Of a stretch of DNA of 64,000 nucleotides, positions 936 through 32,486 are shown one piece after another; position 1 is the stretch's first letter; every line of letters starts with the position of its first letter. This DNA is from an uncultured Gammaproteobacteria bacterium (GTDB lineage Bacteria; Patescibacteriota; Microgenomatia; CAYQLK01). A program made the position numbers and the translations under genes. The notes under the pieces were generated by a model. The model saw nothing but the letters and a program-made list of their open reading frames with translations, did no database searches and was not told the origin of the DNA. The stretch is taken from assembly GCA_964404855.1 (NCBI GenBank), contig CAYOLO010000001.1:158245-222244 (forward strand), given 5' to 3'.

Positions 936-1180
936 GAGTTGTACACAACCAAGTATGTTTTATCCACAACTTTATCCACAAACAAAGAATATTTTTACAG
1001 ACAAAACAAACCCAAAAATGAACCTACTCTTATGGGTTATAATATGAAAATTGCTTATTCTAATAACGAAATGTTAATTCTCGACAATATTTTTGAGGCT
1101 AAGTCTGGCTTGGAATTACACATATCTACAGAGTATATTACTGTGATTACTTGTTTAAAATAAAAAAATAAATAAAAGAG
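936..1180. promoter_or_regulatory. Putative oriC / DnaA-box cluster in the dnaA–dnaN intergenic region
   Basis: Two perfect consensus DnaA boxes TTATCCACA at 960–968 and 972–980, plus a related TGTACACAA at 939–947. They are followed by AT-rich runs (gttataatatgaaaattgcttattctaataacg; ttgtttaaaataaaaaaataaataaaag) typical of a DNA-unwinding element. The ORF-track entry 939–1163 lies entirely in this region and is probably not a gene. Confidence 0.55.
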
Positions 1181-2655: not shown

Positions 2656-3681
2656 TCAGTTAACTACAGCTTCGACTGCGAGTTGAATTAGGTACGATTG
2701 TCCATCGTTAGATAGTGCGTTACCTGTAAAGATATAAAAAGGGTAAATTGTTTCAGGATTTTTGGTGGTTGGGTGAAAATAGGCTATTTCTACAGAGTTG
2801 ATTGATATGGTTTTGTAATTAGTAACATAATAAGCCTCTTCATCGGTTTTTGTGCCTAATATTTTTTTGATTTGAGTGATTGTTGATTGGTTGTTTAATA
2901 GTTTATTGACTGCCTGTTGTGAAGAGATAAAAACGATTTTTTCTTTGGTTTGATAAGTGGGGTTAACCAAAGCAAAACTAGTAATATTTCCAGATGTGTC
3001 AAGGGAAATTGTGCCAACTGACAGGTTCGGAGTGCGGTCGGTGGATATAGGGATGTTGTTTATTTTATTTAGAATATAAAAAGTGACCGTGTCGGCAGAA
3101 TTATAGTCAGTAATTGGCTGATCGTTTTGGTTGGTTGATAAATAAAACTCAGGCTCAGAGAGTGTGTGGTTTGGGTTCGGTGAAAGAGTAGCAAGAGCGG
3201 TTTTTGCGTTATTTATAATATTTTCGATTGGTATTCTTTGGGGGGAAGAGATTTGGGGGCTGCGGTAAGTTATTGTTAAATCGTCAATTGTAAGTGTGCG
3301 GTTTTGATCAACAAAGACCTTTCTAGTGCCAAGGTCCGTTAATAACTCTCTAAAATTTTGCGAGTCAAAATTAAAAAAGCTAGATATTTTGCTTGTGTCT
3401 TGAGGGGTTTTTGTGATGTTAGCACTGAAAATATTTTCAGGTGCTACAAATGCTGAAATTTGTTCTCCAATTTGATATTTTTGCGGCTTGTTAGCGAAAG
3501 GATCATTGTCAGGTTGAGAATTTTTTGGGATAGATGTCTCTTGTGGTGTGATTGGCGGGGTTTCTTTTTGAGAAGGATTGAGAACTAGATACAGAAGAAT
3601 AAAAAGTAAAATAAAGCCAGCAAAAAAGAAGAATATCCAGTATTTTCCAAACTTGGTTTTAAGGTCTGTAAGTGTCATTGT
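2656..3681 (-). CDS. Membrane-anchored Pro/Thr/Gln-rich extracytoplasmic protein (hypothetical; last gene of the T4SS-like operon)
   Basis: N-terminal TM helix (YWIFFFFAGFILLFILLYLVL) followed by a low-complexity P/T/Q-rich linker and a ~250-aa domain. Start chosen at internal Met (MTLTDLK) so that it abuts the stop of the upstream gene at 3684; the track start 3702 would overlap by 19 nt. Confidence 0.5.
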   Translation of the reverse strand, partial: TMTLTDLKTKFGKYWIFFFFAGFILLFILLYLVLNPSQKETPPITPQETSIPKNSQPDNDPFANKPQKYQIGEQISAFVAPENIFSANITKTPQDTSKISSFFNFDSQNFRELLTDLGTRKVFVDQNRTLTIDDLTITYRSPQISSPQRIPIENIINNAKTALATLSPNPNHTLSEPEFYLSTNQNDQPITDYNSADTVTFYILNKINNIPISTDRTPNLSVGTISLDTSGNITSFALVNPTYQTKEKIVFISSQQAVNKLLNNQSTITQIKKILGTKTDEEAYYVTNYKTISINSVEIAYFHPTTKNPETIYPFYIFTGNALSNDGQSYLIQLAVEAVVN

Positions 3682-3683
3682 TT

Positions 3684-6600
3684 TTAGTTTACTCCTGCAC
3701 AACTTCCTGCACAGGCACGAACATCGACTGGTATGTAGGGTGGCTCCATTCGAAGCCCGCGAAATTCATAGTGAAGGTGGGTGCCACGAATATCGGGAGG
3801 CAGAATATATCCAGTATATCCTTCGTAGCCGATTACTTGGCCTTTTGTAACAACTGTTCCCACTTCGATTCCGCTACCAAATGAGTCTAGATGGCCATAG
3901 ATAGCTTGAAACGCTACACCATTACAGGTGCCGCTGAGAATAACTGTCAGTCCGGTTCTACCTGTGATTGGGTGGCTGGCATTAGGATCGGAATATTTGT
4001 ATTGAACAATTCCGTTAAAACTAGCCAATAAACTGTCGGTGTAAAAAGTGCCAATGTCGATGGCTTCTAGTGATTGGTGCGAGATATTTGCCCCTGGACC
4101 TTGGGTGACACTGCCTGATCCGGCGACTGGCCAGCCGGATGGACAATCTCCAGCGGGAGTGCCAATAAACACACTTGAAAGGTCGTTGGCTGTAGAAGAT
4201 ACTGAGTTACTAAACCCTCCGCTTGGGAGTGGAGATGGAGTTATTAGTGGGTCGAAGGATTTAAAATTTATAGAGAATTTATTACTAATGCTGGAGTCCT
4301 CGAAGATGGTTTCGTTGGGAATATTTAGACTGTAGTTAATATTGGTTGACTGATTAGGGTTTAGTGTGGCTGGACAAGTAATAGTTGGTGGTGTAAGCGA
4401 GCGGACTGTGCCGTTTTTGGTGGTGTGGGTGATTGTGTCTGAACAAACTATGTCGTAAACGGGTTGGTTGCCGGCGGTAATACTCACAGAATAGGTAATT
4501 GTTTGTGGAAGGTCAGAGTTTTCTAAATTAATGGTTTTGGCTGGTCCGAGTGATTTATTAGGAGCACTGACCAGTTTTTGGATTTGAATATAGGCGTTGC
4601 CAGATTCGCCTTCGGTGGCATCGCCAGGTAAGACAATTTGCTCTGGAAGGCTGGGGTTGGTAAATAATGCTGAGGAAACCGTGTTGTAGCTTAGTACCGA
4701 AAAAGCTGTGACCCCCCCGAGCGTAGCAGCGGGAATAAGAACCGCAGGACTAGTTGCAACTGTGACGGCAGTACTGGCACCACTACTTAATAATCCTCCA
4801 AGGCTGGATAGTCCTCCACCAATAAGACCAACGGCGCCACTGCCTACCCCACCTAAAAACGAGGCAGTTGCACTTAAAGCACCCCAAGCAGAGGCGATCC
4901 AACCGATTGGTGCGGTAACTACTCCCCATAATTTGGGTAAACTAAGGAGTACGTTGTCGACGAATGCTGCGTAAGGCGGAAAATGACTATATAGCCAAAC
5001 TGAAGCTGTGCCTCCCAAAAAACCACCAATTAGGGCGCCGATTGGTCCTCCAAGCATAAAACCAATTGCTGCACCAACCGCAAAACCGATGATAAATGCA
5101 GCAATTTGGGTTAGTAGCCAAAGGAACAATAAATAAGCCAAAAATGCGAGCATGGCGGCAATATAGGCAATTTTTTTCTTGTATTTGAGTATTAAAGCTA
5201 GGGCAATTTGTGCAACTAATGATGTGCCGCCTGTGGCTGCACCAAGTGCAGCGGAAAGTCCAACTTTGGCTGCGACTTTACCTGCACCTTTTTTAGCAAA
5301 ACCTTTGAGTTTACCTTTGGCGCGACTAGCGGAGAATTTTTGTGAAAAATTAAAATATGATTTTTTGGGAATGAAATTAGTTGATCTAGTGATAGTTTGT
5401 CCGGCAGAACTTTGTGAGTAGTAAGATCTTGAAAAACCACCCATTCTCCAGACTGAGCGCTTGTTTGGATTTTGAAACTGAGGAATTTGTTCGTAAAGTT
5501 CTAATTCATCAGAGTAGTTTTTGAGAAGAATTGCTTCGCCAGCTGAAACAGAGCCTCTGCCTTTTAGTTCTTTGGTGCTACGGCTAAGAAAAGACTGTCT
5601 TTGGGGTGAGGGTTGAAGAGTTTCGGTTAAAAAATCCTCATACCCTTCCTTTTGTCTCTTGGGGTTTTCCATTAGTGATGCAAAAGCGTGATTTTGCGCT
5701 GCTTCAGCTTCAGCTGGTGCAACCGCTTGTTGGCCTTGAGCATAGATATTGATAGGTTGGAGGATTTCTCTACTTATGGTGTCTGTAACAAAACGGGGAG
5801 CGGCTTGGGTTAGAAGAGTTTTGTCTTCAAGTTTGCCGTCTAGGTGTTTAAGTAGGGAGTTAAAACTTTGTTCTTGAGCATCGTTTAGATTTTGAAGAAA
5901 CCTTTCTGGTTGGAGTGGAATATTTTTTTCAAAATCATCTGTAGTTGTGTCAAGAACCCTTTGAGCAATATTGGGCAAAAAAACTTGCTGGATTGCCGCA
6001 GAAACAACAAGTTTGTTTTGGGAAGTGTTGGTGCTGGGGTTGATTTTTAAGGCAGTACTAACCGCGTTGTCGATAATTTCTGTGTGGGTGGTTGGTGCTG
6101 ATTTAGGATCGGTTAGGGTATTAATTAATAAAACTTGTGAGGCAACATTTGCTTGTGAGATTGCTGGGAAGTTGGCCTCTGAAGATTGGTCAACAGCCAC
6201 TAAAAACTCTTCAGACTTAACAAGGTTGCTCGCTTGTTTGGCTGTCTCTGGTTCTTTGGCTACTGCCTCATAAATTTCTGATGCAATGACTGGTGACAAT
6301 TCTTGATAATCTGCGGTGTGGGTAGAATAAACAATATTAGAAGCAACCGCATCTGATATTTTACCTACAAGTCTTTCTTGGTTGGCGGCATCTATTTTGG
6401 TTTTAAAAATTGTGGCGGAAATTTCTGGTGAGAGAATTATTTGTTTAATCGAGGTAGCGACTTCTTTGTGGGTGAGATTAACTGTGTCTTCTAGTTTTTT
6501 AACAGTAGCTGCTTTTTTTGTTTTAGCTTCGTTTGAATATGGTTTTTCTATTGTTGAACTTGAGGAGGGAGAAACTGGAAGTGTGATTGTTGGTTGCGGG

Positions 6601-7181
6601 GATTTTGAGGTTGGGGTGATGGGTTGCTGTATTGGTTGAGGAGAACTTGGCAGATTAAGGCTGGCTTCTGGTTCGGTTTGGGAGGGAGTATTGATTTTAA
6701 TGGTTTTTGGTAACTCTATTGCAGGAGGAAGATTTTCGGCGGCTTTTTCCTGACGAATTTTTTGTATTACAGCGTCAACTTCTTCGATTGTGGCGAGGCC
6801 GCTTGTAGGTAATTTGGCTTGGTCTTTGTTAGTTTTGGAAATAATTGGTATGGCGGCCAAATTTGAGATTTCGAGTTCTTTGAGATCATTTTCAATAAGT
6901 GAGGAAAAAATTTGTCTAAGAACAAGAATGTTTTGACCAATATCGGCAATTTTGTATTGGTCGGCAATATTTTGAATTGAAATTAATGTTTGTTCGTAGT
7001 TGGCACCTGGAAAGAGGTCTAAAAATTTTTTATTGAACTCCTCTTCGGTTGGGAATCTTGGGGGAAGGTTTTTGGTAGCAGATTTTTCAAAAAAATCTAA
7101 AGTCCAGTCTGCCAACCGAAACTGTAGTAATTGATCTAAAGCATTTTGGGGTTTGGTGGTTGTTTCGGGTGTAGTTGGCAT
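3684..7181 (-). CDS. Large polytopic membrane protein with C-terminal M23 (LytM) peptidoglycan endopeptidase domain; T4SS-associated cell-wall hydrolase candidate (functional analogue of VirB1/PrgK/TcpG)
   Basis: 1165 aa. Residues ~550–720 form at least six hydrophobic Gly/Ala-rich helices. The extreme C-terminus ...VVTKGQVIGYEGYTGYILPPDIRGTHLHYEFRGLRMEPPYIP carries the M23 family HxH zinc-binding motif with preceding GYTG. An N-terminal ~540-aa helical domain is Pro-rich. Sits between VirB4 and the operon end. Confidence 0.65.
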   Translation of the reverse strand: MPTTPETTTKPQNALDQLLQFRLADWTLDFFEKSATKNLPPRFPTEEEFNKKFLDLFPGANYEQTLISIQNIADQYKIADIGQNILVLRQIFSSLIENDLKELEISNLAAIPIISKTNKDQAKLPTSGLATIEEVDAVIQKIRQEKAAENLPPAIELPKTIKINTPSQTEPEASLNLPSSPQPIQQPITPTSKSPQPTITLPVSPSSSSTIEKPYSNEAKTKKAATVKKLEDTVNLTHKEVATSIKQIILSPEISATIFKTKIDAANQERLVGKISDAVASNIVYSTHTADYQELSPVIASEIYEAVAKEPETAKQASNLVKSEEFLVAVDQSSEANFPAISQANVASQVLLINTLTDPKSAPTTHTEIIDNAVSTALKINPSTNTSQNKLVVSAAIQQVFLPNIAQRVLDTTTDDFEKNIPLQPERFLQNLNDAQEQSFNSLLKHLDGKLEDKTLLTQAAPRFVTDTISREILQPINIYAQGQQAVAPAEAEAAQNHAFASLMENPKRQKEGYEDFLTETLQPSPQRQSFLSRSTKELKGRGSVSAGEAILLKNYSDELELYEQIPQFQNPNKRSVWRMGGFSRSYYSQSSAGQTITRSTNFIPKKSYFNFSQKFSASRAKGKLKGFAKKGAGKVAAKVGLSAALGAATGGTSLVAQIALALILKYKKKIAYIAAMLAFLAYLLFLWLLTQIAAFIIGFAVGAAIGFMLGGPIGALIGGFLGGTASVWLYSHFPPYAAFVDNVLLSLPKLWGVVTAPIGWIASAWGALSATASFLGGVGSGAVGLIGGGLSSLGGLLSSGASTAVTVATSPAVLIPAATLGGVTAFSVLSYNTVSSALFTNPSLPEQIVLPGDATEGESGNAYIQIQKLVSAPNKSLGPAKTINLENSDLPQTITYSVSITAGNQPVYDIVCSDTITHTTKNGTVRSLTPPTITCPATLNPNQSTNINYSLNIPNETIFEDSSISNKFSINFKSFDPLITPSPLPSGGFSNSVSSTANDLSSVFIGTPAGDCPSGWPVAGSGSVTQGPGANISHQSLEAIDIGTFYTDSLLASFNGIVQYKYSDPNASHPITGRTGLTVILSGTCNGVAFQAIYGHLDSFGSGIEVGTVVTKGQVIGYEGYTGYILPPDIRGTHLHYEFRGLRMEPPYIPVDVRACAGSCAGVN

Positions 7182-7243
7182 GTTACTTAGCTAATCATAA
7201 TTCTTATAGTGCTAAATGAGCCATTGTGGAGCACTTTTTTGGT

Positions 7244-9106
7244 TTAAATGATTTCTTGCGAAGCAGATGAAAGTGGCACGTTTGAGGTGTTAGAATCTTG
7301 GTTTTGGGCAGCAGCAGCATTTTGCATTTCTAAAACCTCCTTAGGATTACTGGTGACAAGTTGATGTTCTTCTGGTGAGCCAACCACAAGCATTGCCACG
7401 TGTGAACTTCCTGCAAAAAACAACCCCTCACCGACATTTGCAGCTAGAAGTAAGTGTTTTTCTCCATCTGAGAGATAAAATACCTCGGCAAGCTTGTCGA
7501 TAGCTGCTGCAGACTGTTTAAGGAGGATTTGAATACTTGAGTTGGTCACGATAGCCTTGCCATATTCTGTGCCCAAGAAGTCCTCGACATCCTGAGTAAT
7601 CGTGGTTAATCCTAGATAATATTTACGAGCACGTTTGGCGATTGAGTACATAAACGTAGCAGAATCAGGATATTGCATCATATACCAAGCCTCATCGACT
7701 ATAAGTATGCGCTTTTTGAGGTCTCTTTTAACACGAGTCCATATAAAGTCGAGAATAATATACATAGCTATTGGGCGCAGTTCGGCTTCAAGGTTTTTGA
7801 TACTAAAAACTGTAAATGTGTTGTGAATATCTAGATTGGAGTATTGGTCGAATATTCCAACTAAAGAACCTTTGACAAACTTTTCGATTCTTTCAGCAAG
7901 GGTTTTGGCTTGAGGTTCTTCCATGCCAATTAAAGCCTTATATAAATCTTCCATTAATGGTGGTTGAAGTGTTTGGGTTTGTGGATCGGCAGTAATGCCC
8001 TTATTTTTGTAAGCAAGTACTAAAGCACGGTCGAGAATTGCATCTTCTGTGGCGGAAAGTTGTCCCATAATGACTCTGAAAAGTCCGTGAAGCGAGAGGA
8101 TTTTGAGATTTAACTCGTTTTCTCCTTCTTCATAGACACCAGAAAGATCGAAAGGGTTAATTTTTGTTTCTGAGTTGAAGTCGAAGCTAATATATTCTCC
8201 ACCTATGGCGGTACAGAGATTTTTGTACTCTTCTTCTGGATCAATAATAATAACTTCGGTGCCAAACATTAGATATCTTAGGGCTTCAAGCTTGGTCATA
8301 TAGGATTTACCGCCTCCGGACTTAGCAAAAACGACGGTATTGGCATTTTCGAGTGAAAATCTGTCAAAGATGATTAGTGATCCGTTGTGTCTATTAATGC
8401 CATACATAATTCCCTCGTTGCTGGTTAAGGAGCTTGATGTGAAAGGAAAAGTTGTGGCTAAAGACGTAGTATCCATGTTTCTGGTAACGAGAAGCTTGTC
8501 GTGGCCGTATGGGAGAGTGGTTTTGAAACCGTCTTCTTGTTGAAGAGTGGCGTGTTTAGAAATAACTAGAATGGAACCAAGCAGACTTTCAACTTGTTTG
8601 GTGATATTGACTAGCTCCTCTTTTGATTCGGCAGGAATAGTGATATAGAGCCCGAACTGAAAAAACTTTTCGGCACCTTTGGCTAGATCTTGTTGAAAGT
8701 TGCGTGCGTCATCTAGGGTAACTTCAAGACTAGGATCAATAACTTTGCCGCGTTGAATATCGGTAGAAATAGTTGCCTCCATTTCTCCAATTTTGCGTTT
8801 CATGTCTTGAAGCACTGCTTGAGCGTCAACTGGATAATGGAACATTGAGATTTCGAGCGTGTGATTAAAATTAATAAGAGGTGAAAGCCAGTTGGCTCCG
8901 ACATACCTGGGGTAGCCAATTACAAAAAGTGTTTTAAAGTAAGTCTCGCCGATTTTTATAAAATCGAAATCGACCTCAATTGCTGGAGGGGCAATGATAT
9001 CTCTAACCGAAACTGTGCCTTGGGCCACTGCTTTGGCTTGAGCAGATACGAGCTGTGGAGCGTTTTGAGGGCTTTGATTAGGGTCTTTTTTGCCAAATAG
9101 TTTCAT
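7244..9106 (-). CDS. virB4: Type IV secretion ATPase VirB4/TrbE/CagE family
   Basis: 620 aa. Walker A FAKSGGGKSYMTKL, Walker B RILIVDEAWYMMQ, and an N-terminal VirB4 domain pattern (DIIAPPAIEVDFDFIKIGETYFKTLFVIGYPRYVGANWLSPL). Start overlaps the upstream gene stop (ATGA at 9103–9106), suggesting translational coupling. Confidence 0.9.
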   Translation of the reverse strand: MKLFGKKDPNQSPQNAPQLVSAQAKAVAQGTVSVRDIIAPPAIEVDFDFIKIGETYFKTLFVIGYPRYVGANWLSPLINFNHTLEISMFHYPVDAQAVLQDMKRKIGEMEATISTDIQRGKVIDPSLEVTLDDARNFQQDLAKGAEKFFQFGLYITIPAESKEELVNITKQVESLLGSILVISKHATLQQEDGFKTTLPYGHDKLLVTRNMDTTSLATTFPFTSSSLTSNEGIMYGINRHNGSLIIFDRFSLENANTVVFAKSGGGKSYMTKLEALRYLMFGTEVIIIDPEEEYKNLCTAIGGEYISFDFNSETKINPFDLSGVYEEGENELNLKILSLHGLFRVIMGQLSATEDAILDRALVLAYKNKGITADPQTQTLQPPLMEDLYKALIGMEEPQAKTLAERIEKFVKGSLVGIFDQYSNLDIHNTFTVFSIKNLEAELRPIAMYIILDFIWTRVKRDLKKRILIVDEAWYMMQYPDSATFMYSIAKRARKYYLGLTTITQDVEDFLGTEYGKAIVTNSSIQILLKQSAAAIDKLAEVFYLSDGEKHLLLAANVGEGLFFAGSSHVAMLVVGSPEEHQLVTSNPKEVLEMQNAAAAQNQDSNTSNVPLSSASQEII

Positions 9107-10206
9107 GATTGTCCTCCGTTTCCTGATGGTGATTTTAGGGCATTTAGAGCCTTTAAGATATCTGGATCAATAGTATTACTGTTGGTTAAGTCGTCACTGC
9201 TGTTCGGTTGTGGTGCCATTGTTGTTGGTTGAGGTTGGGGTGTGTTAATTACCGATGGAATAGTGGGAATTTGTGAGGCTGGTTCTGGAATAGGAGAGGT
9301 TTGGGGGGTAACCACAGATGCCGCTGTTTGATTGAGAGGATTGGCAGCTATGGGGGGTGCTTGAACCGCAGGGTTAGGGGCGTAGATGGTTTGTTGTGGT
9401 CCAGCGGGTGGAGCAGGTTGAGGCTGTGGGGTATATAAGGGTTGGGTTTGGGCAGTTTGAGGCTCGACAGGCTGTGGTTCTGGTTGAACTGGAGAGGCAA
9501 TTGAGGTTGTTGCTTGGTTTTCTTCAACAATCGGAGCTGAGACTGCTGGCGAAACGATGGGTGATGTGTATGAGCCTGCTGATTCAATTATTTTTTGCAA
9601 TCCAACCTCACTAGGGTTGTAGATGTCAAAATAAAGCTCGATTAGTTCTTGTGTGGTCAATTGTTTTGATTTGATACCAATACGGCCGAATTGTTGAACA
9701 AGATGGTCACGTTTGGGGTAGAGACTTGTTTTGACCATGTCAATAAAACCTTGAGTGTGGGTATTGTCCTTTTGAATATTGCCAAGGGCGGCACCTTTGA
9801 CACCCAACTCGAGCGGATTAAATGGAATAACCACGTAGAATTTTTTTTCTAGAACGTTGTTTTGTTGAACAACGGTTTGAATAAATTGTCGATATTGAAA
9901 AATCTGCCTTTTGATGTCCGGGTTGGCTTGATGGGTTTCTGCTTGAGTGATTAATTGCAGGTAGTTACTGAGGTCAATTTTTTTACTACGAACAACGATT
10001 TGAATAGTGAAATTTAAGGAGTTGAGAAGTCCAGCGTACGAGTAAATAATTGAGTCCTGTTCGTCGACAGAGAGAAGTTCGAAATTAATAGCGGCAGTTT
10101 GAATAATAATCGTGGCCGAATTGTCTTTGAGGATTACAACATCATCACGGATATCGCTGATTTCTAGGTGTTCTTGAGTTGATGATTTAATCGGGGCAGA
10201 TTTCAT
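9103..10206 (-). CDS. Hypothetical T4SS-associated protein: N-terminal ~200-aa domain resembling a VirB4 N-terminal domain (no ATPase motifs) fused to a Pro/Gln-rich low-complexity tail
   Basis: N-terminus ISDIRDDVVILKDNSATIIIQTAAINFELLSVDEQDSIIYSYAGLLNSL resembles VirB4/TraC N-domain patterns (dG..a.lev.g.nf.l.s.eEq...f...LnsL). C-terminal ~130 aa is PQPEPQPVEPQ...-type low complexity. No Walker motifs. Confidence 0.4.
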   Translation of the reverse strand: MKSAPIKSSTQEHLEISDIRDDVVILKDNSATIIIQTAAINFELLSVDEQDSIIYSYAGLLNSLNFTIQIVVRSKKIDLSNYLQLITQAETHQANPDIKRQIFQYRQFIQTVVQQNNVLEKKFYVVIPFNPLELGVKGAALGNIQKDNTHTQGFIDMVKTSLYPKRDHLVQQFGRIGIKSKQLTTQELIELYFDIYNPSEVGLQKIIESAGSYTSPIVSPAVSAPIVEENQATTSIASPVQPEPQPVEPQTAQTQPLYTPQPQPAPPAGPQQTIYAPNPAVQAPPIAANPLNQTAASVVTPQTSPIPEPASQIPTIPSVINTPQPQPTTMAPQPNSSDDLTNSNTIDPDILKALNALKSPSGNGGQS

Positions 10207-10207
10207 C

Positions 10208-12241: not shown

Positions 12242-12471
12242 AATGGGAAAATTAACTATAAAAAAGGCAGGAACTCTTATTGATTTTGGATTGTAGCAGA
12301 AAAAAATATAGGTTGCAGTGAAAAAAGTTGCGTGAAATTTTTGAAGCTAAATTCTAAATAATATTGTCGGCTAAATATTGTGATGTTAATTAGTTAATTA
12401 CAAAATCTAATTAAATAACTATGGGACTGTTTATTAAGGCTAAAAATGATATAATGGGGTATAGTTAAATT
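12242..12471. promoter_or_regulatory. AT-rich divergent promoter region between the T4SS-like operon (minus) and the 12472 gene (plus)
   Basis: 230-bp AT-rich intergenic region. gatataatgg (TATAAT) sits ~18 nt upstream of the ATG at 12472. Several TTGAxx-like -35 candidates on both strands. Confidence 0.4.
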
Positions 12472-14742
12472 ATGCCAGATAACGAGAAACACATTATTAG
12501 TTTAGAAGAGCAGGCAAGGGTTGAGGATCAGCCTTTGGCGAGCACTCAGGCTGAGGCACAACTATTTAGTGCTATTGATAGGGCTATGGGGGTTGAGAGT
12601 CAGACTAGGGATGAGCAGGTAACTCAGGAAGCGGATGAAAGTCATCGAACACAAATTGAATATATACGAGAATTAAACTCAATTGAGCTTGAGTTGAGAA
12701 ATGCTGATCCTTCAGTTAGAAGTATGCTTGAGGCGAGACGGGATGAATTAAAGGCCGAGCTTGAGTCGATGGTAGCTACTGAAAAAGAAAAAGAGCGTTA
12801 TCTTGATGCGGGCTTAAGGTTGTTTACAAGGTTGCAGACGCAAAAGGATGCGGTGCTGGCTAACTTGAAGGCTTTTAGAGGTTTGACTCCAAATAGAAAC
12901 GAGCTGATGAATCCATTGAATGCGTTTGTTGATAAGGTTGAGAGCTTAAGAAAAGAAGGAGATCCAAACACACCAGAGCGTAGAGAGGGCGAACTTAAAG
13001 CGGCTGCTTTGGAATTTGAACTTAGGAAAGCCAGGGAAGAAGTTTTGGCTGCGATTGAAAACTATAACCCCGTCGAATCACTTAAGTTAAATGCTTTAAC
13101 TGAGCTTGAGTTGGCTGAAGATCAGAGAGTGGCAAGGGATAATCCACAAATAAGAGAATTGTTAAAAATTTTAAATGACCCAGAATTAAGCGGAAAGTTT
13201 GGCAAACAAGTTGAAGCCTTTAGGGATGAATATAATGCCTTGGTAAGGATTCATAATTTTGCGGTAGCTGGTAAGGGTAAGGGGGCAGTTGAAATAACGG
13301 CCGCTTTGGGCGAGCTTGATCAGGCCGCATTAGTTGAGTTGTTTGAAGCTGAAGGCTTAAGGCAGGATATTATTGATGCTTATATTGCCGATAGGAGAGT
13401 TTTTGATGAGTTGAACACAGCGGTATTGGATCAAAAAGAAGCTGAAGCTTTATTAGAAGAGAGAACAGTATTGGGCAACAATAAGCGTACTTTTAAAAGA
13501 GCTGAAGTTCCAGATCCTAGGGATCCAACTAAAATGATTGATTTAGAAACTCTTTATCGTACGACTAGTGACGAGGATCAAAAAAAGGCGTTAATAGCAG
13601 CTAATCAGCCTTTACTGACCGAGGGTTATAAACAAAAGAAGGCATGGGAAGCTAAATATGTTGATAGTGTTTTGAGAGATGAATTTTTTTCTCCTTCAGC
13701 GCTTGCGAATTTTAGGTCGAGCGAACGCGTACCAGCTTCAGTTACAGTTTCTGAGCTTCAAAAACTAATTGAAGCAAGTTATGCATATAAGTCAAGGAAG
13801 ATTGTTTTGGGGCAAGAAATGGATAATATGATTGGTTTCCTTGAGACTACAATTGCGCCCATGGTTGTTGAGCCTATTAGGGTAATTCCAACTGAACCAC
13901 TAAAAAATGGTGACACAACTGGATATATCTTTGCGGGCAAATATAAGGATAATATTTTGGTTAAAACTAGATACCCACAAGATGTGTTGGAGGCTGGAGG
14001 AAAGATAAATGGGAAAGTTTTGAATATAACAGGCCCAATCTTTGATAAGGGATTCTATAAATATGGGGATCCTGGGTTTAAGCTAATGACGGAAACCTTT
14101 GGTATGGAAAAACCGACTGATCCGGAAAAAGCTACAGATGTGACTGATTGGTTAGAAAGATTTAAGACTGTCGATGCGCTGAGTCAAATTCGTAATAATC
14201 CAGAAGTGGTGAATAAACTTAAAGATGATGTTTATAAGGATGCGGCAGCAGCTCAAGCGAACGAAATGTACGATAAGTTTGAGGCTTTTCAGAGGGAACC
14301 GAATGAAGAATCAGCAAAAGCTTTGATGGCAAGTTATTTTTCTAAAACGCCTGAAGATAGGCGTAATTTCAACATGCAGGTAATTGAGGCACTACTTAGA
14401 TATAAGATGAAAATTAATGGGATTTATGCCTTTAGTGACAATAATGAGAGACAGAATTGGGGAGCAAGAAGAATTGAAGATTATATTGGCAAAGCTAGAG
14501 AAGCTGGGTTAATTGGCACGAGAGAAGAGAGGGAATTAAAAAGAAGAGTTTTTAAGGGTAAAGAAATTAAATTGGGCCGTGTCAAAATTGCCACAATTCC
14601 AGCACTTGGAAAAAAAGCAGAGATGGTTGGTGCTTGGACTAAAGAAGTTTTTGGCCCTAAGAACTTAAAAAATACGGCTTTTAGCTGGGCTAAGACTTTG
14701 TATAAAGAGAGCGTTGACCAGATTAGGTCTGATTTGAAATAG
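12472..14742 (+). CDS. Large soluble, highly charged coiled-coil protein (hypothetical; candidate T4SS substrate/accessory)
   Basis: 756 aa with no TM segment and no nucleotide-binding motif. N-terminal two-thirds rich in heptad-like E/K/R/L repeats. Transcribed divergently from the T4SS-like operon. Confidence 0.55.
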   Translation: MPDNEKHIISLEEQARVEDQPLASTQAEAQLFSAIDRAMGVESQTRDEQVTQEADESHRTQIEYIRELNSIELELRNADPSVRSMLEARRDELKAELESMVATEKEKERYLDAGLRLFTRLQTQKDAVLANLKAFRGLTPNRNELMNPLNAFVDKVESLRKEGDPNTPERREGELKAAALEFELRKAREEVLAAIENYNPVESLKLNALTELELAEDQRVARDNPQIRELLKILNDPELSGKFGKQVEAFRDEYNALVRIHNFAVAGKGKGAVEITAALGELDQAALVELFEAEGLRQDIIDAYIADRRVFDELNTAVLDQKEAEALLEERTVLGNNKRTFKRAEVPDPRDPTKMIDLETLYRTTSDEDQKKALIAANQPLLTEGYKQKKAWEAKYVDSVLRDEFFSPSALANFRSSERVPASVTVSELQKLIEASYAYKSRKIVLGQEMDNMIGFLETTIAPMVVEPIRVIPTEPLKNGDTTGYIFAGKYKDNILVKTRYPQDVLEAGGKINGKVLNITGPIFDKGFYKYGDPGFKLMTETFGMEKPTDPEKATDVTDWLERFKTVDALSQIRNNPEVVNKLKDDVYKDAAAAQANEMYDKFEAFQREPNEESAKALMASYFSKTPEDRRNFNMQVIEALLRYKMKINGIYAFSDNNERQNWGARRIEDYIGKAREAGLIGTREERELKRRVFKGKEIKLGRVKIATIPALGKKAEMVGAWTKEVFGPKNLKNTAFSWAKTLYKESVDQIRSDLK

Positions 14743-14757
14743 TTTTCCGATTAAAAT

Positions 14758-16467
14758 TTACGGTCTTCTGCGACTGAATGGGTTAGCTGATCTTTGGGCT
14801 TGTGTTGAAGCTTGTTGAGGTGTGGTTGACGGACCAGCAGGTCCAGGTCTGCCTGGTGTAATTGGTGAAGATGCACCTGGGGTACTTGAAAGCCTATCAT
14901 ATCTTCTTTGTGAACTCCAAGGATTAAATGTGTTACTTAGTTTTTCGCCAGCAAAATCACTAGTTCTAGCTTTGGCTCTGGTGGCTGCACCATTAAATGG
15001 TTGTCTAGCCATACCTAATCCTGCGCCTGCAACAGCGCCAGCCGCACCACCAATTGTTCCACCAATTCCGCCACCTTTGACTTTGAATGAATCCTGAGCG
15101 ATTTTGGCTGCGGATGGTACGCCTAATAGAATGCCAATACCAATTAAAGACTTAAGAGCGTTAGCACCTTCTTCATTAGTAAACCCACCGAGAAGCGGAG
15201 CATTCCACCCCTCACCTTCAGTAATCGTAGCTTCACCAGAGGTAATCCTGTCTTTGCCCACACCCATAAAATAGGCAGCAAAGATAATCATAAGTATGGT
15301 GATTACAAAAGTGGCAAGTTGGGCGGCAATATTTCGAATCCAAGGACCAAAGCCCGGCATGCCTGGAATAACGCCGATTCCAATCATAAGGGGACCAAAA
15401 ATTGTGTAAAAGAATACTTTGACGTAGGCCATAAGTAGCATAAAAAATATGCGGAATGTGGCTACAAGCATCATAATTCCAATCACGGCAACGGCTAGAG
15501 CAGAAAGGATACTTGAGCTGAATTTTTCGATCAAGTCAGGCAAGCCAAAGTTATCGATTGCACCAGCTATAATATCGTCGCTGCTGTGGAATATGCCTGA
15601 AATATTTTCAAGGAATAATTCTTTAAGCATAAATGTGAAAACGTTGTTTTCGTAATAGATTCCATTGGAATTAGGTTGGGCTACGCTTTCGCTCGAGAGA
15701 ATTTGAATCATAACGGCGATAAAAAAGTTCATTAGATCAATCATTAGTCCGACGATTGCATAGGAGAAGGTAACGAGGATTAAACTAATTACTATTTTTG
15801 GTAATACCGCTTGGACTGAAGCAACAGAGCTTGAACTTAGTCTCTGGCGGAAAATAATCATAAAACCAATGACAATAAAAAAGATGACATAGAGAAGAAG
15901 TGTGAGGTTGCGGAAGGTGGTCCATAAGGCTTGGGTTGGTTTGAGCGCGTCGTAGCCTGTTTGAGCAGCTAAAGTTTCGCCGGTAATTTTTGATTTAAGA
16001 TCGGCAAGATATTGCACACCCGAAGCCGGTTCTTCAGTGTAAAGCATAGCGATGCTTTTCATTAAAAATGGCACTGCGGCTCCGGTTCGACAATTGGTTC
16101 CACCACCACTTATACATTCGAGTTCTGCTTCGGTTGATGGAAGGCCAGTTATTTGGCGGTTGATACCAAAAGCCAGATTGTCCATAAGGCCTAGGTTGAA
16201 TTTTTGAAGATTCACGTCGTCTTCGTCGAGAGCGTTTTTGTACTGACAAATTGATTGTTGATATGGTTGGACAGTATCGCCTATACCAGGATGGGGATTA
16301 GAAATACCAACAGGACTGCCAGCTGGAGGAGGGGGAGAGCCAGCGGCTTCTTCCTCACACCCAAACGGATCTTCGGCTTGAGCAAGAACAGGCGACGAAT
16401 TAAAGCTAAAAAAAATTGAGAAAAGGCTGAATATTATAAAAATTGGCAGAACGATCTTAAGACGCAT
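14758..16467 (-). CDS. VirB6/TrbL-like polytopic inner-membrane T4SS channel protein
   Basis: 569 aa. Signal peptide (MRLKIVLPIFIIFSLFSIFFSFNSSPVLAQA), ~130-aa Cys-containing extracytoplasmic domain, at least 6 TM helices, then a Gly/Pro-rich C-terminal tail (GGGIGGTIGGAAGAVAGAG...PGRPGPAGPSTTPQQ). This is the architecture typical of TrbL/VirB6. Confidence 0.6.
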   Translation of the reverse strand: MRLKIVLPIFIIFSLFSIFFSFNSSPVLAQAEDPFGCEEEAAGSPPPPAGSPVGISNPHPGIGDTVQPYQQSICQYKNALDEDDVNLQKFNLGLMDNLAFGINRQITGLPSTEAELECISGGGTNCRTGAAVPFLMKSIAMLYTEEPASGVQYLADLKSKITGETLAAQTGYDALKPTQALWTTFRNLTLLLYVIFFIVIGFMIIFRQRLSSSSVASVQAVLPKIVISLILVTFSYAIVGLMIDLMNFFIAVMIQILSSESVAQPNSNGIYYENNVFTFMLKELFLENISGIFHSSDDIIAGAIDNFGLPDLIEKFSSSILSALAVAVIGIMMLVATFRIFFMLLMAYVKVFFYTIFGPLMIGIGVIPGMPGFGPWIRNIAAQLATFVITILMIIFAAYFMGVGKDRITSGEATITEGEGWNAPLLGGFTNEEGANALKSLIGIGILLGVPSAAKIAQDSFKVKGGGIGGTIGGAAGAVAGAGLGMARQPFNGAATRAKARTSDFAGEKLSNTFNPWSSQRRYDRLSSTPGASSPITPGRPGPAGPSTTPQQASTQAQRSANPFSRRRP

Positions 16468-16519
16468 TGGTAGGCAAGTTATAGCTTATTTTAATCTTAG
16501 TTTAGGTATATTTGCAAAG

Positions 16520-17737
16520 TTATTCTTTTCTGACTTCGATATCTTTTGGGGTAATAGTGCGTAATATTATTTCTTTGGCGGTTTGAACGCTACCTAGGTA
16601 GCCTGCCCAAACTTGATTGGACTGACCAAAACCTTTAAGTCTGGTCGACGCGGTGTCAGAAAATTCTCCTGTATTGTTTTTATTCCAAAAATCACCTGGG
16701 CCAAATAATCGTAAACTGCCGGATTTTTTGCGTGCTAGTGATTTCCATACCGAGTCAACATAGGGAATTCGAGAAGAGAGGAGTGAGCCGTTTTTGGTGT
16801 ACTGGACGGAGTCGGCTGCTGTTCCAGAGGCGTTGTAGAGAATAATATATTCTTCGCCTGGACCTTCTCTGCCTTCTGGTTTGGCTGGTTCGGGATTAAA
16901 ATCTATTGATTCTTTGATCGTATCTTGCTGAAGGGTAACTTGCTGAAGTATTTGAGATAATGCGGCAAGGCGGGCGACTGAAGGAACACCTAGTAATAAA
17001 TCACGGCCAGGAACACATGTTTCTGATTCATCTTCACTGTCTGATGTGGAGGAGATACAGCCTCTGGATGTCCAGTTTGTAACTAGAGGAAATTTAGCCC
17101 AATATCTTCCCCAGGTTTCTGACCAGACTTTGGCTGATACACCACCTTGAAGTCCGGGTGGAAGAGGTTTGCCCCAAGCGTCGTAAAGGTCCTTTACTGT
17201 ACGGTAGTGCTGTCCGCAGTAGTCACCATATTCGGCAGCAGCCTCTTCGAGTTTAGTGGTGCCTGATTTGGATAATTGATAGACGGTTTCAATATATGTC
17301 TGGCGAAGTTTGTCGATATTATTTTTGGGCAAGATTTTGATTAAGGGACCATTAAAGTTGTTAAGTTCGTTGTTGTTAAGTTTGGAGATGTCTGTTTTGC
17401 GGTGAGAGTCAGTTTGGAATTTGCCCTCCAGATAATTAGCCATTGATCTGACAAAGGGCAGAACGGGTTTATTAACCACTGCAGAAACTCCTGAAGCATT
17501 GACAATTGCTCTAGATGGCTGATATTCACTCTCGGTTTTGCCCTCTAGTTCATTCCATGTTGGCGGGGTGTAAGTTGGATTGGTCCCGTTTGGTGGTTCT
17601 GGTTGATCACAGATTTTAGGCAGAGTGTATTGAGCAAATGAGTACGGTGAAAAAAAAGAAACGATTAGTGTAAATATGAGAAAAAAAGAAAGTCCAAGTG
17701 CTGGTTTTTGGACTAGGGCAAGTTTTTTCATTAACAA
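16520..17737 (-). CDS. Secreted protein (signal peptide), hypothetical; possible VirB5-like minor pilin/adhesin by position
   Basis: 405 aa with cleavable signal peptide ...FSPYSFAQ and several Cys. Lies between the VirB6-like gene and the pilin array. No recognisable catalytic motif. Confidence 0.5.
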   Translation of the reverse strand: MLMKKLALVQKPALGLSFFLIFTLIVSFFSPYSFAQYTLPKICDQPEPPNGTNPTYTPPTWNELEGKTESEYQPSRAIVNASGVSAVVNKPVLPFVRSMANYLEGKFQTDSHRKTDISKLNNNELNNFNGPLIKILPKNNIDKLRQTYIETVYQLSKSGTTKLEEAAAEYGDYCGQHYRTVKDLYDAWGKPLPPGLQGGVSAKVWSETWGRYWAKFPLVTNWTSRGCISSTSDSEDESETCVPGRDLLLGVPSVARLAALSQILQQVTLQQDTIKESIDFNPEPAKPEGREGPGEEYIILYNASGTAADSVQYTKNGSLLSSRIPYVDSVWKSLARKKSGSLRLFGPGDFWNKNNTGEFSDTASTRLKGFGQSNQVWAGYLGSVQTAKEIILRTITPKDIEVRKE

Positions 17738-17745
17738 AACTTAGC

Positions 17746-18150
17746 TTAACACTGTGTATTTTCCGGTGTGTAGTCGAGTAGATTGATTCCCGTAACGAGT
17801 TCTAGGGATTTAAAGATAGCGTAAATAAGTAACAACACAACTACTCCGATTAGGGCGGTCATTATTGCACTCCTAGCTGAGGCTGCGCCTTGCGGATTGC
17901 CGAAGGAAAATATGTATTTGTAGCCTGCGTAGATAAGCATGACAAAAAACCCAATTCCAGCTGCGGGGGCGATAATTTTTATGGCTTTGGCGATAATATC
18001 AATTAGGTCGCAAAGCTGAGAAGGTTCTTCGCTTCCTCCACCAATTGGACCTGGACCGCCTCCAGCGGCCGCAAACACTCCCTGATTAAGGGCTAAAAAT
18101 AAAATTGAATAAAATAAAGAAATTGCGAGAGATTTTTTGTTCATTGTCAC
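17746..18150 (-). CDS. VirB2/TrbC-like pilin paralog 6
   Basis: 134 aa. Signal peptide, then two hydrophobic helices separated by the motif ...SFGNPQGAASARSAIMTALIGVVVLLL shared with the five upstream paralogs. Confidence 0.6.
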   Translation of the reverse strand: MTMNKKSLAISLFYSILFLALNQGVFAAAGGGPGPIGGGSEEPSQLCDLIDIIAKAIKIIAPAAGIGFFVMLIYAGYKYIFSFGNPQGAASARSAIMTALIGVVVLLLIYAIFKSLELVTGINLLDYTPENTQC

Positions 18151-18259
18151 TAGTTAATTAAATAATACCAGTTAATCAAATTGTAAATCCAAACAATATC
18201 GACCTGGAAAGTATTTAGTACTCCAGGTCGATATTGGAAGAAACTTTTTCCTAATCTTT

Positions 18260-18634
18260 TTACAGAGTTGGAATAGTGAAGTTGTCTCCAGTAATAATGC
18301 TGACTCCAAGAATGGTTTGGACAAGCATAATTAAGGCTAAGGCCAAAACTACAACCACCAACCCAACGAGTGCGTGAATTACTTGATTTCTGGCGGCTGC
18401 AACTTTTCCTGGGTCACCACTGGAAAGAATCCATTTGATACCACCAATTAATAGCCAGATAAAAGCAATAAGGAATGCAGCAAAAATAATCATTTGAATC
18501 ACAAAGCTGAGGATTGCTCCTGGTTCAGCTACGTTGACATTGTATGGATTAAGCTGAATTTCGTCTGCAAACGCTGCTGTAGAACTAGCAATAGTCCCGA
18601 CAACTGAGGATGATACGGCAATTAACTTTTTTAT
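18260..18634 (-). CDS. VirB2/TrbC-like pilin paralog 5 (N-terminus extended beyond the annotated ATG; non-canonical start)
   Basis: Track ORF 18260–18502 starts MIQMIIFAAF. The same frame stays open upstream to a TGA at 18641–18643 and encodes a textbook signal peptide IKKLIAVSSSVVGTIASSTAAFA|DE. A strong SD AAGGGGGTGA (revcomp of 18641–18650) lies 6 nt upstream of an ATA codon at 18632–18634. No ATG/GTG/TTG is available before the signal peptide. Confidence 0.5.
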   Translation of the reverse strand: MKKLIAVSSSVVGTIASSTAAFADEIQLNPYNVNVAEPGAILSFVIQMIIFAAFLIAFIWLLIGGIKWILSSGDPGKVAAARNQVIHALVGLVVVVLALALIMLVQTILGVSIITGDNFTIPTL

Positions 18635-18660
18635 AACGACTCACCCCCTTTCAAGGTTTT

Positions 18661-19107
18661 TTAGAACGGAAGTTCTGGACTAGTAATAGAGCCTGCGTTT
18701 AGGCTAAAGATGTTTTCAACAAGAGTCAAAATAGAAAAAGCTAGGATAATTACAATAAGGCCAATTATTGCGTAGGTGATTTTTTTCTGAGCGGCAGCGG
18801 TTTTTGCTGGCTCACCATTACTGGTAATGTAACTGATACCTGCGAGTAGTAGCCAAATAAAAGCCATAACAAAACCTGCAAACATTAGGATTTTTATGGC
18901 GAATGTAATGATTTTTCCAACATCAGAAGCTTCGGTTGGAATACCGGCTGGAGGGCAGATTTCCCCTAGAGGATTTTGGTCAGTACCTTGAGATCCTGTT
19001 GAACAAGCAGCAATTACATTGGCTGCAGAAATAGCTAGCATTATTAATATTCCTGGAAAAACAAAAATTGCTTGTTTGAATGTAGATTTTATGTGAAAAA
19101 GCGACAT
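18661..19107 (-). CDS. VirB2/TrbC-like pilin paralog 4
   Basis: 148 aa. Signal peptide (ILIMLAISAANVIAACS) and conserved core FIWLLLAGISYITSNGEPAKTAAAQKKITYAIIGLIVIILAF. Confidence 0.6.
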   Translation of the reverse strand: MSLFHIKSTFKQAIFVFPGILIMLAISAANVIAACSTGSQGTDQNPLGEICPPAGIPTEASDVGKIITFAIKILMFAGFVMAFIWLLLAGISYITSNGEPAKTAAAQKKITYAIIGLIVIILAFSILTLVENIFSLNAGSITSPELPF

Positions 19108-19108
19108 T

Positions 19109-19441
19109 TTAAAGATTGGGATTATTAATAAATAGTGCCTGTACTGTATACATTATCACAAAAGTTAGAATCAAAAGGATCATACCGATGACTGCATATG
19201 TGATTGAATTTTTTGCAGCTGCAGTCTTATTTGGATCACCACCAGAGGTAATAAATTTGATACCCCCGAGGATTAAAAAAATGACGGTAAAAATTGCACC
19301 AAGGCCAAATATAATCGATAAGAAAATAGTACCAATGTCGCCAACTGATTGAAAGTTTTCTGCGGGTTGGAACTCTTCGTTAATGTTGAGCCCCAGAAGG
19401 GGTAAGGAGCTTAGTGGTAATAATATTTTTTTAGGTGACAT
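19109..19441 (-). CDS. VirB2/TrbC-like pilin paralog 3
   Basis: Core FLILGGIKFITSGGDPNKTAAAKNSITYAVIGMILLILTF. Start taken at internal Met MSPKKILLPL (19441), which overlaps the upstream stop by 11 nt instead of 38 nt. Confidence 0.55.
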   Translation of the reverse strand: MSPKKILLPLSSLPLLGLNINEEFQPAENFQSVGDIGTIFLSIIFGLGAIFTVIFLILGGIKFITSGGDPNKTAAAKNSITYAVIGMILLILTFVIMYTVQALFINNPNL

Positions 19442-19763
19442 AAACGTTAAGAATTGATTGTGAAACAAATGCGGTTAATGCCCAAGCTATGGAAATAATA
19501 ACCAGGCCGATTACAGCATTAATTATCATAGATTTACCTCCCGCAACGCTGGCTGGATTGCCTCCGCTTAAAATTATTCGAAATGCGCCGATTGCTATAA
19601 GAATTATTGATACTAAAAAGGCAAAAGGAAAAACAAAATAAACCATTGCGTTACTAATAAATCCACCAACAGAGCTGGCTGAGCCACTGTTAAATTCAGT
19701 AATAGGATTACCGACACCTGATTCTCCGAGTCGGATTGCGATGTTTTTTGTTTCGCTTAACAT
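19431..19763 (-). CDS. VirB2/TrbC-like pilin paralog 2
   Basis: Core ILIAIGAFRIILSGGNPASVAGGKSMIINAVIGLVIISIAW. The start ATG shares its A with the TAA of the upstream gene (TAATG overlap at 19763). Confidence 0.55.
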   Translation of the reverse strand: MLSETKNIAIRLGESGVGNPITEFNSGSASSVGGFISNAMVYFVFPFAFLVSIILIAIGAFRIILSGGNPASVAGGKSMIINAVIGLVIISIAWALTAFVSQSILNVYVT

Positions 19764-20362
19764 TATGGTGTGTATATGTCGCTTGTAGCTTCTATGCCTG
19801 GAAGATTAAGAATATTAGCGCCAATTATTTCAAGAATAGTTACAGCAAAAACAATAAACAACAGACCAGAGATTGCCGAAATTATCATCTCTCGACCTGC
19901 GTTAATACCGCTTGGATTGCCAGCAGAAGTAACAATTTTAACTGCACCGAAGCCGGCGAGTATAAAAGCCACAACCGCTGCAATTGATATTGAGACGGTT
20001 AGGATTGTTGTAACAGTACTACCACCACTATCGCCTGTATCAAATTCTAGAACTCCTCCAATTGAACAGGTTGGGCTACATGGAATAGATGAGTCTCCAC
20101 CAGTGCCCCCACTACTATTTTCGCCAGATCCTACGCCTGCTCCGCCAGCTAATGCTGTTTCACATGAAGATTGGGAGTTGTAGTGTGGAAGGTCGCCTCC
20201 AAAAGTCGCAGAAATACAAGAAATTGTTCCACCAACGTTTCGAATAAACCAGTAGGTAGCAGCGTTGGTGGAATTTGTTGGCAGGAATGAGATAAGTACG
20301 AAATTAAATACTAAAAATAGTGATAATAAAAATGTTTTTAGGGCGAGATTGATTTTGGGCAT
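19763..20362 (-). CDS. VirB2/TrbC-like pilin paralog 1 with extended Gly/Ser/Cys-rich N-terminal extracellular region
   Basis: 199 aa. Signal peptide (FLLSLFLVFNFVLISFLPTNSTNA), four Cys, then core ILAGFGAVKIVTSAGNPSGINAGREMIISAISGLLFIVFAV. Confidence 0.55.
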   Translation of the reverse strand: MPKINLALKTFLLSLFLVFNFVLISFLPTNSTNAATYWFIRNVGGTISCISATFGGDLPHYNSQSSCETALAGGAGVGSGENSSGGTGGDSSIPCSPTCSIGGVLEFDTGDSGGSTVTTILTVSISIAAVVAFILAGFGAVKIVTSAGNPSGINAGREMIISAISGLLFIVFAVTILEIIGANILNLPGIEATSDIYTP

Positions 20363-20380
20363 AGAAGGTATAATCTAACA

Positions 20381-23483: not shown

Positions 23484-23504
23484 AAATATTTTAGATATTT
23501 ATCT

Positions 23505-23537
23505 AAACAAAAGGCTGCTCGAAATGAGCGGCTTTTT
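23505..23537 (+). terminator. Rho-independent terminator downstream of ssrA
   Basis: GGCTGCTC-GAAAT-GAGCGGC hairpin (7 bp, one G·U) followed by TTTTTTT. Confidence 0.55.
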
Positions 23538-32484: not shown

Positions 32485-32486
32485 TT

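Follow-up and report, generated by a model that had tools for sequence, protein, structure and literature searches.

A very probable vertically inherited type IV secretion system beside dnaN and dnaA on a Curtissbacteria-like chromosome

The 64-kb stretch of DNA analysed here (referred to as the window) is about 10% of what appears to be a genome of roughly 0.66 Mb and encodes a type IV secretion system (T4SS) next to the replication genes dnaN and dnaA. The T4SS genes form two operons, both on the minus strand. Operon A (12241→2656) encodes a PrgI/VirB3 fusion, a TrsD-like protein, VirB4, a hydrolase of 1165 amino acids (aa) with a Peptidase_M23 (M23) domain and a bitopic membrane protein; neighbouring genes are separated by, or overlap by, 0–62 nt. 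Operon B (20362→14758) encodes six VirB2-like pilins, then a secreted protein and then a polytopic protein with a VirB6 fold; within both operons the spacing is mostly 0–60 nt. A check of the open reading frame (ORF) map found the genes where an initial annotation of this DNA had placed them, and proteins were assigned by Pfam and NCBIfam profile scans, transmembrane (TM) and signal-peptide scans, BLAST clustering and fold comparison. The two operons beside dnaA/dnaN described in that annotation agree with the ORF coordinates and with the Pfam matches of dnaA and dnaN, and every gene assignment it made was borne out. For comparison, one genome per species was scanned, giving 80 loci from lineages of the Microgenomates group; these were read with 10-kb flanks, a length that restricts gene detection, and their gene order was compared by tblastn and ORF clustering. 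What kind of system is encoded here? The core parts (a split VirB4, a PrgI/VirB3 anchor, a subunit with the VirB6 fold, six pilins and an M23 hydrolase) are present and look intact, and the locus is very likely a vertically inherited T4SS of the Patescibacteria clade, derived from monoderm MPF_FATA conjugation machinery and carried on a Curtissbacteria-like (Microgenomates) chromosome.

Operon A starts with the PrgI/VirB3-like fusion (10208..12241), in which the PrgI family (PF12666) matches residues 12–97 with 39.4 bits against a cutoff of 27. The TM scan places a two-TM hairpin at residues 27–76; this is followed by a coiled-coil linker and by a C-terminal β-sandwich (residues ~585–675) of the CarboxypepD_reg/Por_Secre_tail-like kind. 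The N- and C-terminal modules are both kept in relatives, and the true start is probably Met7, at 12223. The next gene (9103..10206), found in 72 loci including the window, gave no match in the Pfam scan; the TrsD model of NCBIfam (NF041427) matches it at E 7e-5. Its residues 9–133 also match VirB4 models in their N-terminal region (NF045975 positions 103–233, E 7.6e-8, and NF045971 positions 12–125, E 1.4e-4), in keeping with the label ‘VirB4-N-domain-like’ that it had first received. Residues ~1–220 are conserved and are followed by a variable P/Q-rich tail, and the stop codon overlaps the start of virB4 by 4 nt. VirB4 itself (7244..9106) matches P-loop_TraG of Pfam with 103.8 bits and NF045971, the model of CD1110-family VirB4, with 405.8 bits (cutoff 325); Walker A (AKSGGGKS, at residue 261) and Walker B (DEAW) are intact. 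The NF045971 match spans profile positions 175–732 only, leaving the first ~175 positions without a counterpart in this protein. Since the TrsD-like protein matches the N-terminal parts of the VirB4 models while the VirB4 match starts at profile position 175, the two look like a split VirB4 whose N-domain is encoded by a separate gene. A direct hhalign comparison between the TrsD-like protein and this genome's own VirB4 was weak (E 0.089); the link relies on the NCBIfam models.

The cell-wall hydrolase (3684..7181) has an N-terminal part of ~640 aa lacking a signal peptide, a TM cluster around residues 646–831 and an extracellular region that ends in Peptidase_M23 (residues 1040–1141) with the HLH motif kept; it is the functional analogue of VirB1-type proteins. 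Pfam and NCBIfam thus confirm the PrgI/VirB3, VirB4 and M23 calls made at the outset. The initial annotation had considered the fusion architectures unusual, and here the comparison led to the opposite view. They are typical: the fusion of PrgI to the C-terminal domain occurs in about 70 related loci, and a large ORF homologous to the hydrolase gene stands directly after virB4 in about 33 others. The last gene of operon A (2656..3702) encodes p348, a 348-aa bitopic membrane protein with one N-terminal TM helix and about 300 aa outside. In 23 other loci a member of its family is found downstream of the M23 gene, and by position p348 is a candidate for a VirB8/TcpC-like subunit; it has no Pfam match, per-member family scans included, and a profile search against PDB sequences came back empty.

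Operon B opens with the pilins, numbered here against the direction of transcription. The PF18895 (T4SS_pilin) cutoff of 26.6 bits is passed by four of the six ORFs: pilin 1 (17746..18150; signal peptide and two-TM core, 34.5 bits), pilin 2 (18260..18637, recognised by Pfam and by alignment with relatives), pilin 3 (18661..19107; 28.6 bits, with a signal peptide ending in the lipobox-like VIAAC) and pilin 4 (19109..19468; 39.9 bits). Pilin 5 (19431..19763) falls 0.5 bit short at 26.1 bits and belongs to the same BLAST cluster as the others. Pilin 6 (19763..20362), the first gene of the operon, has no Pfam match; it shares the TM-(S/T)xGxP-loop-TM core and one BLAST cluster with the other five, aligns with them, matches NF045849 weakly (E 0.0099, residues 114–180) and carries a long N-terminal extension rich in Gly, Ser and Cys. 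The call of six pilin-like genes thus holds by Pfam, BLAST clustering, NCBIfam and alignment. Their pairwise identity is 25–47%. A six-fold pilin amplification had also been described as unusual; it lies within the published range of 2–11 genes, which have similar identities (PMC12102498). The best conserved of the six is pilin 2, with 90–97% identity in the closest relatives. Of note, its ORF as listed (18260–18502) is preceded in frame, at 18503–18640 on the minus strand, by a conserved signal-peptide-like extension (…KKLIAVSSSVVGTIASSTAAFA/DE…) that has no ATG, GTG or TTG start. Because of this conserved upstream signal peptide, translation probably starts at an ATA near 18637, 9 nt after a GGGGG ribosome-binding site, and the same arrangement is found in two related loci (L002 and L004). 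Downstream of the pilins lies the gene for a 405-aa protein (16520..17737), whose signal peptide agrees with its original description as secreted. In other lineages the slot between pilins and VirB6 holds unrelated secreted proteins, and we infer that the 405-aa protein is a candidate tip or adhesin subunit.

Which protein would serve as VirB6? The last gene of operon B (14758..16467) encodes a 569-aa polytopic membrane protein that, together with its 81 homologues, has no Pfam domain; NCBIfam gave no match either, nor did a comparison of the family profile with PDB sequences. An alignment of 76 sequences gave an AlphaFold2 model that has a mean predicted local distance difference test score (pLDDT) of 73.8, and its membrane core is above 90. 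Foldseek's eight top-ranked PDB matches are without exception TrwI/VirB6 chains of the R388 T4SS; these matches are weak (E 0.07–0.8, probability up to 0.84). The modelled fold, and not the sequence, thus supports the identification of this protein as VirB6, and the earlier VirB6/TrbL-like call stands on the same footing, with no TrbL match. Compared with TrwI/VirB6 of R388 and DotA of the Legionella Dot/Icm system, whose fold it shares, the 569-aa protein has 8–12% sequence identity and lacks the Pfam TrbL match, and it differs from them in its monoderm context and in having no recognisable VirB5 partner. The gene is recognisable in about 30 related loci, a number mostly limited by the length of the fetched flanks.

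The chromosomal position of the locus is well defined. The C-terminal part of dnaA (78–935) and dnaN (1181–2308), both identified by Pfam, are separated by a 245-bp spacer (feature 939..1180) that is likely the replication origin (oriC) or a DnaA-box cluster. Of the three perfect TTATCCACA DnaA boxes in the window, two are found in it (960–968 and 972–980, starting 12 bp apart at 960 and 972), together with AT-rich sequence, which makes the original placement of the locus next to oriC reasonable; the T4SS lies about 1.5 kb from the boxes. GC skew is positive across positions 1–64000. The plus strand is therefore the leading strand, and both T4SS operons, being on the minus strand, are transcribed head-on to the replication fork, immediately next to the origin.

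VirB4 has over 8000 homologues, the best being 72–78% identical and from candidate phyla radiation (CPR) genomes. The best named relatives belong to Candidatus Curtissbacteria and Roizmanbacteria, and among the top 120 homologues (72–100% identical) each one listed with its source either comes from a CPR genome or bears the name TraC/VirB4. Judged by sequence, the nearest relatives of VirB4 would thus be patescibacterial and nested in MPF_FATA. The 80 related loci share a conserved order: pilins, variable secreted protein, VirB6, a large opposite-strand gene, sometimes an AAA plus winged-helix regulator, the PrgI fusion, TrsD, VirB4, the giant hydrolase, p348, dnaN, dnaA and the genes on the rnpA side. 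PrgI, TrsD and VirB4 are collinear in 71–73 of these loci, a PrgI-domain gene adjoins TrsD in about 70, and the M23, p348, VirB6 and pilin genes hold conserved positions. The genes dnaN and dnaA lie 3–10 kb downstream in 57–58 of the 80, most exceptions being truncated contigs, and this synteny spans Curtiss-, Woyke-, Shapiro-, Levy-, Woese- and Beckwithbacteria. A comparison with Saccharibacteria loci had been proposed; gene order was indeed compared, and the apt comparison turned out to include the Microgenomates (Curtissbacteria) as well. The conserved gene order and the linkage to dnaN/dnaA point to vertical inheritance and not to a mobile element, in line with the earlier view of the apparatus as chromosomally fixed and not conjugative. 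Across 54 loci outside the closest relatives, median identity is 66% for VirB4, 42% for DnaA and 34% for DnaN, and VirB4 exceeds DnaA in every one of them. The difference between VirB4 and DnaA implies very strong purifying selection on the secretion ATPase. It is unusual for such an ATPase to evolve more slowly than the replication initiator.

Two observations on the related loci can be added. Some Curtissbacteria-like loci carry, directly upstream of prgI, the gene for a regulator of 420–465 aa with AAA_22 and Trans_reg_C (winged-helix) domains (L013:5994–7250, and also L006, L016 and L075), which is absent from this window. In addition, many metagenome-assembled genome records with this CPR locus (L001–L004, L008 and others) are titled ‘uncultured Gammaproteobacteria’ or ‘Pseudomonadales’ and another bears the title ‘Nanoarchaeia archaeon’, all of them taxonomic labels that are clearly mistaken.

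The locus had been described as lacking a relaxase and a coupling protein (T4CP). Pfam scans of the T4SS region and of 40 further ORFs of the window, nearly all the longer ones included, detected no VirD4/T4SS-DNA_transf, relaxase or VirB11 family in the 64 kb, and no TraG-D_C or TrwB family; the window ORFs that have no family assignment contain no Walker A motif. For want of a cognate model, no search for the origin of transfer (oriT) was made. The statement on VirD4, relaxase and VirB11 thus stands for the 64 kb, and the claim of a missing coupling protein holds for the window only.

How does this locus compare with known systems? Quiñonero-Coronel et al. (2025, Microb Genom) examined 3,035 genomes and described a monophyletic Patescibacteria VirB4 clade nested in MPF_FATA, with TrsD as the commonest partner and PrgI/VirB3 also present; pilin arrays of 2–11 genes were especially abundant in Microgenomatia, relaxases were found in only 103 genomes, and the proximity to dnaA/dnaN in Microgenomatia was read as a gene-dosage effect (PMC12102498). 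The window resembles this clade in its VirB4 with nearest relatives in CPR genomes, TrsD directly upstream, PrgI/VirB3, PF18895 array and M23-containing hydrolase, in the absence of a relaxase or T4CP nearby, and in its place beside dnaN/dnaA, as in Microgenomatia. The same survey called VirB6 ‘scarce’ in Microgenomatia and found 22.6% of the VirB3 homologues of the class near virB4 (PMC12102498), whereas here a gene with a VirB6 fold is present and a PrgI-domain gene stands beside TrsD in ~70 of 80 loci; the opposite-strand gene described below is not discussed in it. Wang et al. (2023, Cell) described the T4SS of Southlakia epibionticum as Gram-positive-like and without a recognisable coupling protein or relaxase, and showed that the region SEML1_0006–0019, with an essential pilin array, is essential for epibiotic growth (PMC10633639). 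The system of strain ML1 and the present one share the Gram-positive-like set, six sequence-divergent pilins, peptidase or lysozyme genes after virB4, a cluster without recognisable coupling protein or relaxase and a chromosomal location; the tags 0006–0019 would put the Southlakia cluster early in the genome numbering, the usual place of dnaA. They differ in that the Southlakia system belongs to Saccharimonadia and is essential by transposon sequencing (Tn-seq), whereas this one is known from its genes alone; the 756-aa (see below), 405-aa and 348-aa proteins have no demonstrated counterparts in ML1. Among the monoderm MPF_FATA systems (CD1110-family/CTn elements, pGO1 Trs, pCF10 Prg/Pcf and the Mycoplasma integrated conjugative element (ICE) Mbov_0395/0397), the likeness lies in a VirB4 that passes NF045971, a TrsD-type protein, PrgI and a membrane-anchored wall hydrolase, and, for the Mycoplasma ICE, in pilins that weakly resemble the pilin-like protein NF045849. 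Unlike the conjugative members, the locus has no relaxase or T4CP in the 64 kb, is not mobile, encodes the VirB4 N-domain separately and has an array of VirB2-like pilins instead of surface adhesins.

A cluster of this kind is found in most ultra-small CPR (Patescibacteria) bacteria. Its gene content, its lack of a relaxase and coupling protein, its pilin array and its position near dnaA were all published between 2023 and 2025, and the T4SS points of these years are restated in a 2025 FEMS review (PMC12857230); the window adds no new kind of system. Slightly beyond the literature are the fold-based VirB6 in Microgenomatia, where profile searches had largely missed this subunit, the PrgI-domain gene beside TrsD in nearly all these Microgenomates loci, the contrast in rate between VirB4 and DnaA, and the hypervariable opposite-strand gene. 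The CPR T4SS belongs to a small number of machines believed to lie behind host dependence in a very large, mostly uncultivated branch of bacteria, and the window offers a clean Curtissbacteria example with all parts assigned.

A possible mechanism can be drawn from the R388/VirB systems and from the Southlakia Tn-seq work. VirB4, held at the membrane by PrgI, would pull pilin subunits out of the membrane and polymerise them into a pilus or tube on the VirB6 platform. The M23 hydrolase would let this structure through the cell wall, that of the producing cell and perhaps that of the host. The pilus or tube would then reach the host cell that carries the epibiont, so that macromolecules could move between both cells; tubular structures have been reported at the parasite–host interface of a cultivated relative (bioRxiv 10.64898/2026.06.21.733656). 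The cargo could be effectors moving out or host material moving in, and the sequence does not decide between them. The system would thus serve the epibiotic lifestyle as a housekeeping function and not conjugation. Several points weigh against this interpretation. The epibiotic lifestyle of this organism is itself inferred, and the requirement for epibiotic growth has been shown only for S. epibionticum. The absence of a coupling protein covers ~10% of the genome and a VirD4-like protein may lie elsewhere; VirD4-like homologues occur in 2,918 of 3,035 Patescibacteria genomes (96%), mostly far from virB4 (PMC12102498). No VirB8-like subunit was identified, the PDB profile search and the per-member Pfam scans having given p348 no support in that role. 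Finally, a scan for promoter and terminator consensus sequences returned fewer matches than shuffled sequence and is silent on the operon boundaries.

Could the same machine mainly import DNA or RNA from the host, for an organism unable to make nucleotides, as Helicobacter ComB and archaeal Ced do? We regard this as possible, if doubtful. Such import has already been suggested (PMC11665869), and a model of RNA-feeding parasitism with a monophyletic VirB4 has been proposed (bioRxiv 10.64898/2026.06.21.733656). A ComFC-like gene (23398–24228) stands 3 kb from the pilin operon, the lack of both relaxase and coupling protein is in keeping with a system that exports no DNA, and VirB4 weakly matches the models of the DNA-import ATPases CedB and CedD. 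These matches reach 41.1 bits against a cutoff of 700 and 27.3 against 600, so far under the cutoffs that VirB4 is not a Ced member; moreover, no ComB-type or Ced-specific subunit and no CedA-like gene was seen. Wang et al. favour protein export or ‘an alternative capacity’ (PMC10633639), and the sequence does not indicate the direction of transport. It is very unlikely that the apparatus is a purely adhesive filament, tethering the cell to its host and moving no substrate. Six divergent pilins, a variable secreted protein in the position of a tip or adhesin and the lack of a substrate-recruiting ATPase (T4CP) nearby would suit such a filament, but these bacteria already use type IV pili for adhesion and motility (PMC12857230), and the conservation of VirB4, the channel-type VirB6 subunit and the dedicated wall hydrolase would seem to exceed what adhesion needs.

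Is the locus instead an ICE, or the remnant of one, that landed near the origin by chance? Its VirB4 is of the CD1110 conjugative family type, and a serine recombinase (30000–31535) is encoded beside a tRNA-Ser gene. This recombinase, however, is part of a low-GC restriction-modification/defence island that stands apart, 10 kb away; neither in the locus nor at its flanks did the Pfam scans find a relaxase, a T4CP or an integrase, and VirB4 is better conserved than DnaA. Synteny with dnaN/dnaA is kept across several named Microgenomates lineages, and on this ground the ICE reading was rejected; it is largely refuted and extremely improbable. The chance that the genes encode a type IV pilus or a type II secretion (PilB/PilC) apparatus is practically nil. 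The row of small pilin-like genes does recall minor-pilin operons, but the ATPase matches VirB4/TraC/TraG models and not PilB/GspE, the pilins match PF18895, have a two-TM hairpin and lack a class III signal peptide, and the polytopic protein has the VirB6/DotA fold and not that of PilC. The profile searches that the initial annotation had suggested were run, and together with the fold results they refute such an apparatus: neither PilB/GspE nor PilC/GspF nor class III pilins were found.

Within the locus of the vertically inherited T4SS favoured here lies a conserved slot between virB6 and prgI. In the window the slot is occupied by a gene on the plus strand (12472..14742), divergent from operon A and convergent on operon B, which encodes a 756-aa acidic protein, predicted to be all-helical, with no TM segment. 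The protein is a lineage-restricted orphan: it has 19 close homologues only, 4 representatives among 1.84 billion proteins, and no match in Pfam, NCBIfam or PADLOC, and Foldseek found no meaningful match for its AlphaFold2 model (pLDDT 70). In 27 other loci an opposite-strand gene encoding 450–1357 aa lies directly upstream of prgI (for instance L013:1952–5878, L020:5578–7812, L028:6188–8014 and L029:5957–7831; L074 has two). Most of the slot proteins are acidic and without TM segments, and phmmer leaves them in at least 15 unlinked clusters. A hidden Markov model of the C-terminal 110 residues of the largest cluster was searched against 1193 proteins; its first outside matches were slot proteins of two other clusters, at or near their C-terminal ends, with E values of 0.02–0.8 only. 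Aligned by hhalign with the 1181-aa slot family, the 756-aa protein matched in the last ~90 residues only, with 8% probability. These results are a hint, not proof, that the slot proteins may share ancestry through a faint C-terminal module. Because the family, PADLOC, fold and hhalign searches gave nothing solid, labels such as coiled-coil scaffold, relaxase or coupling protein were not adopted for the 756-aa protein. What could its function be? It might be a fast-evolving partner of the T4SS, either a cognate substrate or effector or a recruiting adaptor that replaces the coupling protein, which we consider rather unlikely. If it were true, the turnover of slot-protein sequences beside a nearly frozen VirB4 would track host specificity.

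On the far side of the pilin operon, and divergent from it, a plus-strand gene (20381..22117) encodes a membrane-anchored coiled-coil protein with a SpoIID domain (Pfam, 58.3 bits), of peptidoglycan-remodelling type. A similar gene was found ~10 kb upstream of virB4 in two of the fetched loci, where detection is limited by the flanks, and the protein may be an accessory of the T4SS, its membership being unproven. The start codons of pilin 6 (minus) and of this gene (plus) are 18 bp apart (20362–20381), which implies that at least one promoter lies inside the opposite gene or that one of the starts is mis-assigned. Between dnaN and operon A there is a weak DciA-like ORF (2339–2647, Pfam).

Elsewhere in the window, a transfer-messenger RNA (tmRNA) of 453 nt was found by Rfam (105 bits) in the region 23031–24228 and was not reported by ARAGORN; the competence-type ComFC-like ORF at 23398–24228 (double zinc ribbon plus phosphoribosyltransferase), as listed, overlaps its 3′ end by ~85 nt. 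In the region 29949–38050 the serine recombinase gene at 30000–31535 abuts the tRNA-Ser gene and is followed by the low-GC (29–35%) island, which encodes two type II DNA methyltransferases, a 299-aa protein (possibly an endonuclease) and a 791-aa AAA_13/PDC-S06 candidate defence ATPase and looks like an integrated restriction-modification/defence island. Three tandem same-strand ORFs at 55851–59142 (353, 382 and 372 aa), each with an N-terminal hydrophobic segment and no Pfam match, may encode paralogous membrane or secreted proteins. Copper-related genes are scattered at 50706–51458 and 59194–62345 and include a CopC–cupredoxin fusion, a DUF1775/YcnI-like protein and a ferric-reductase-like membrane protein.

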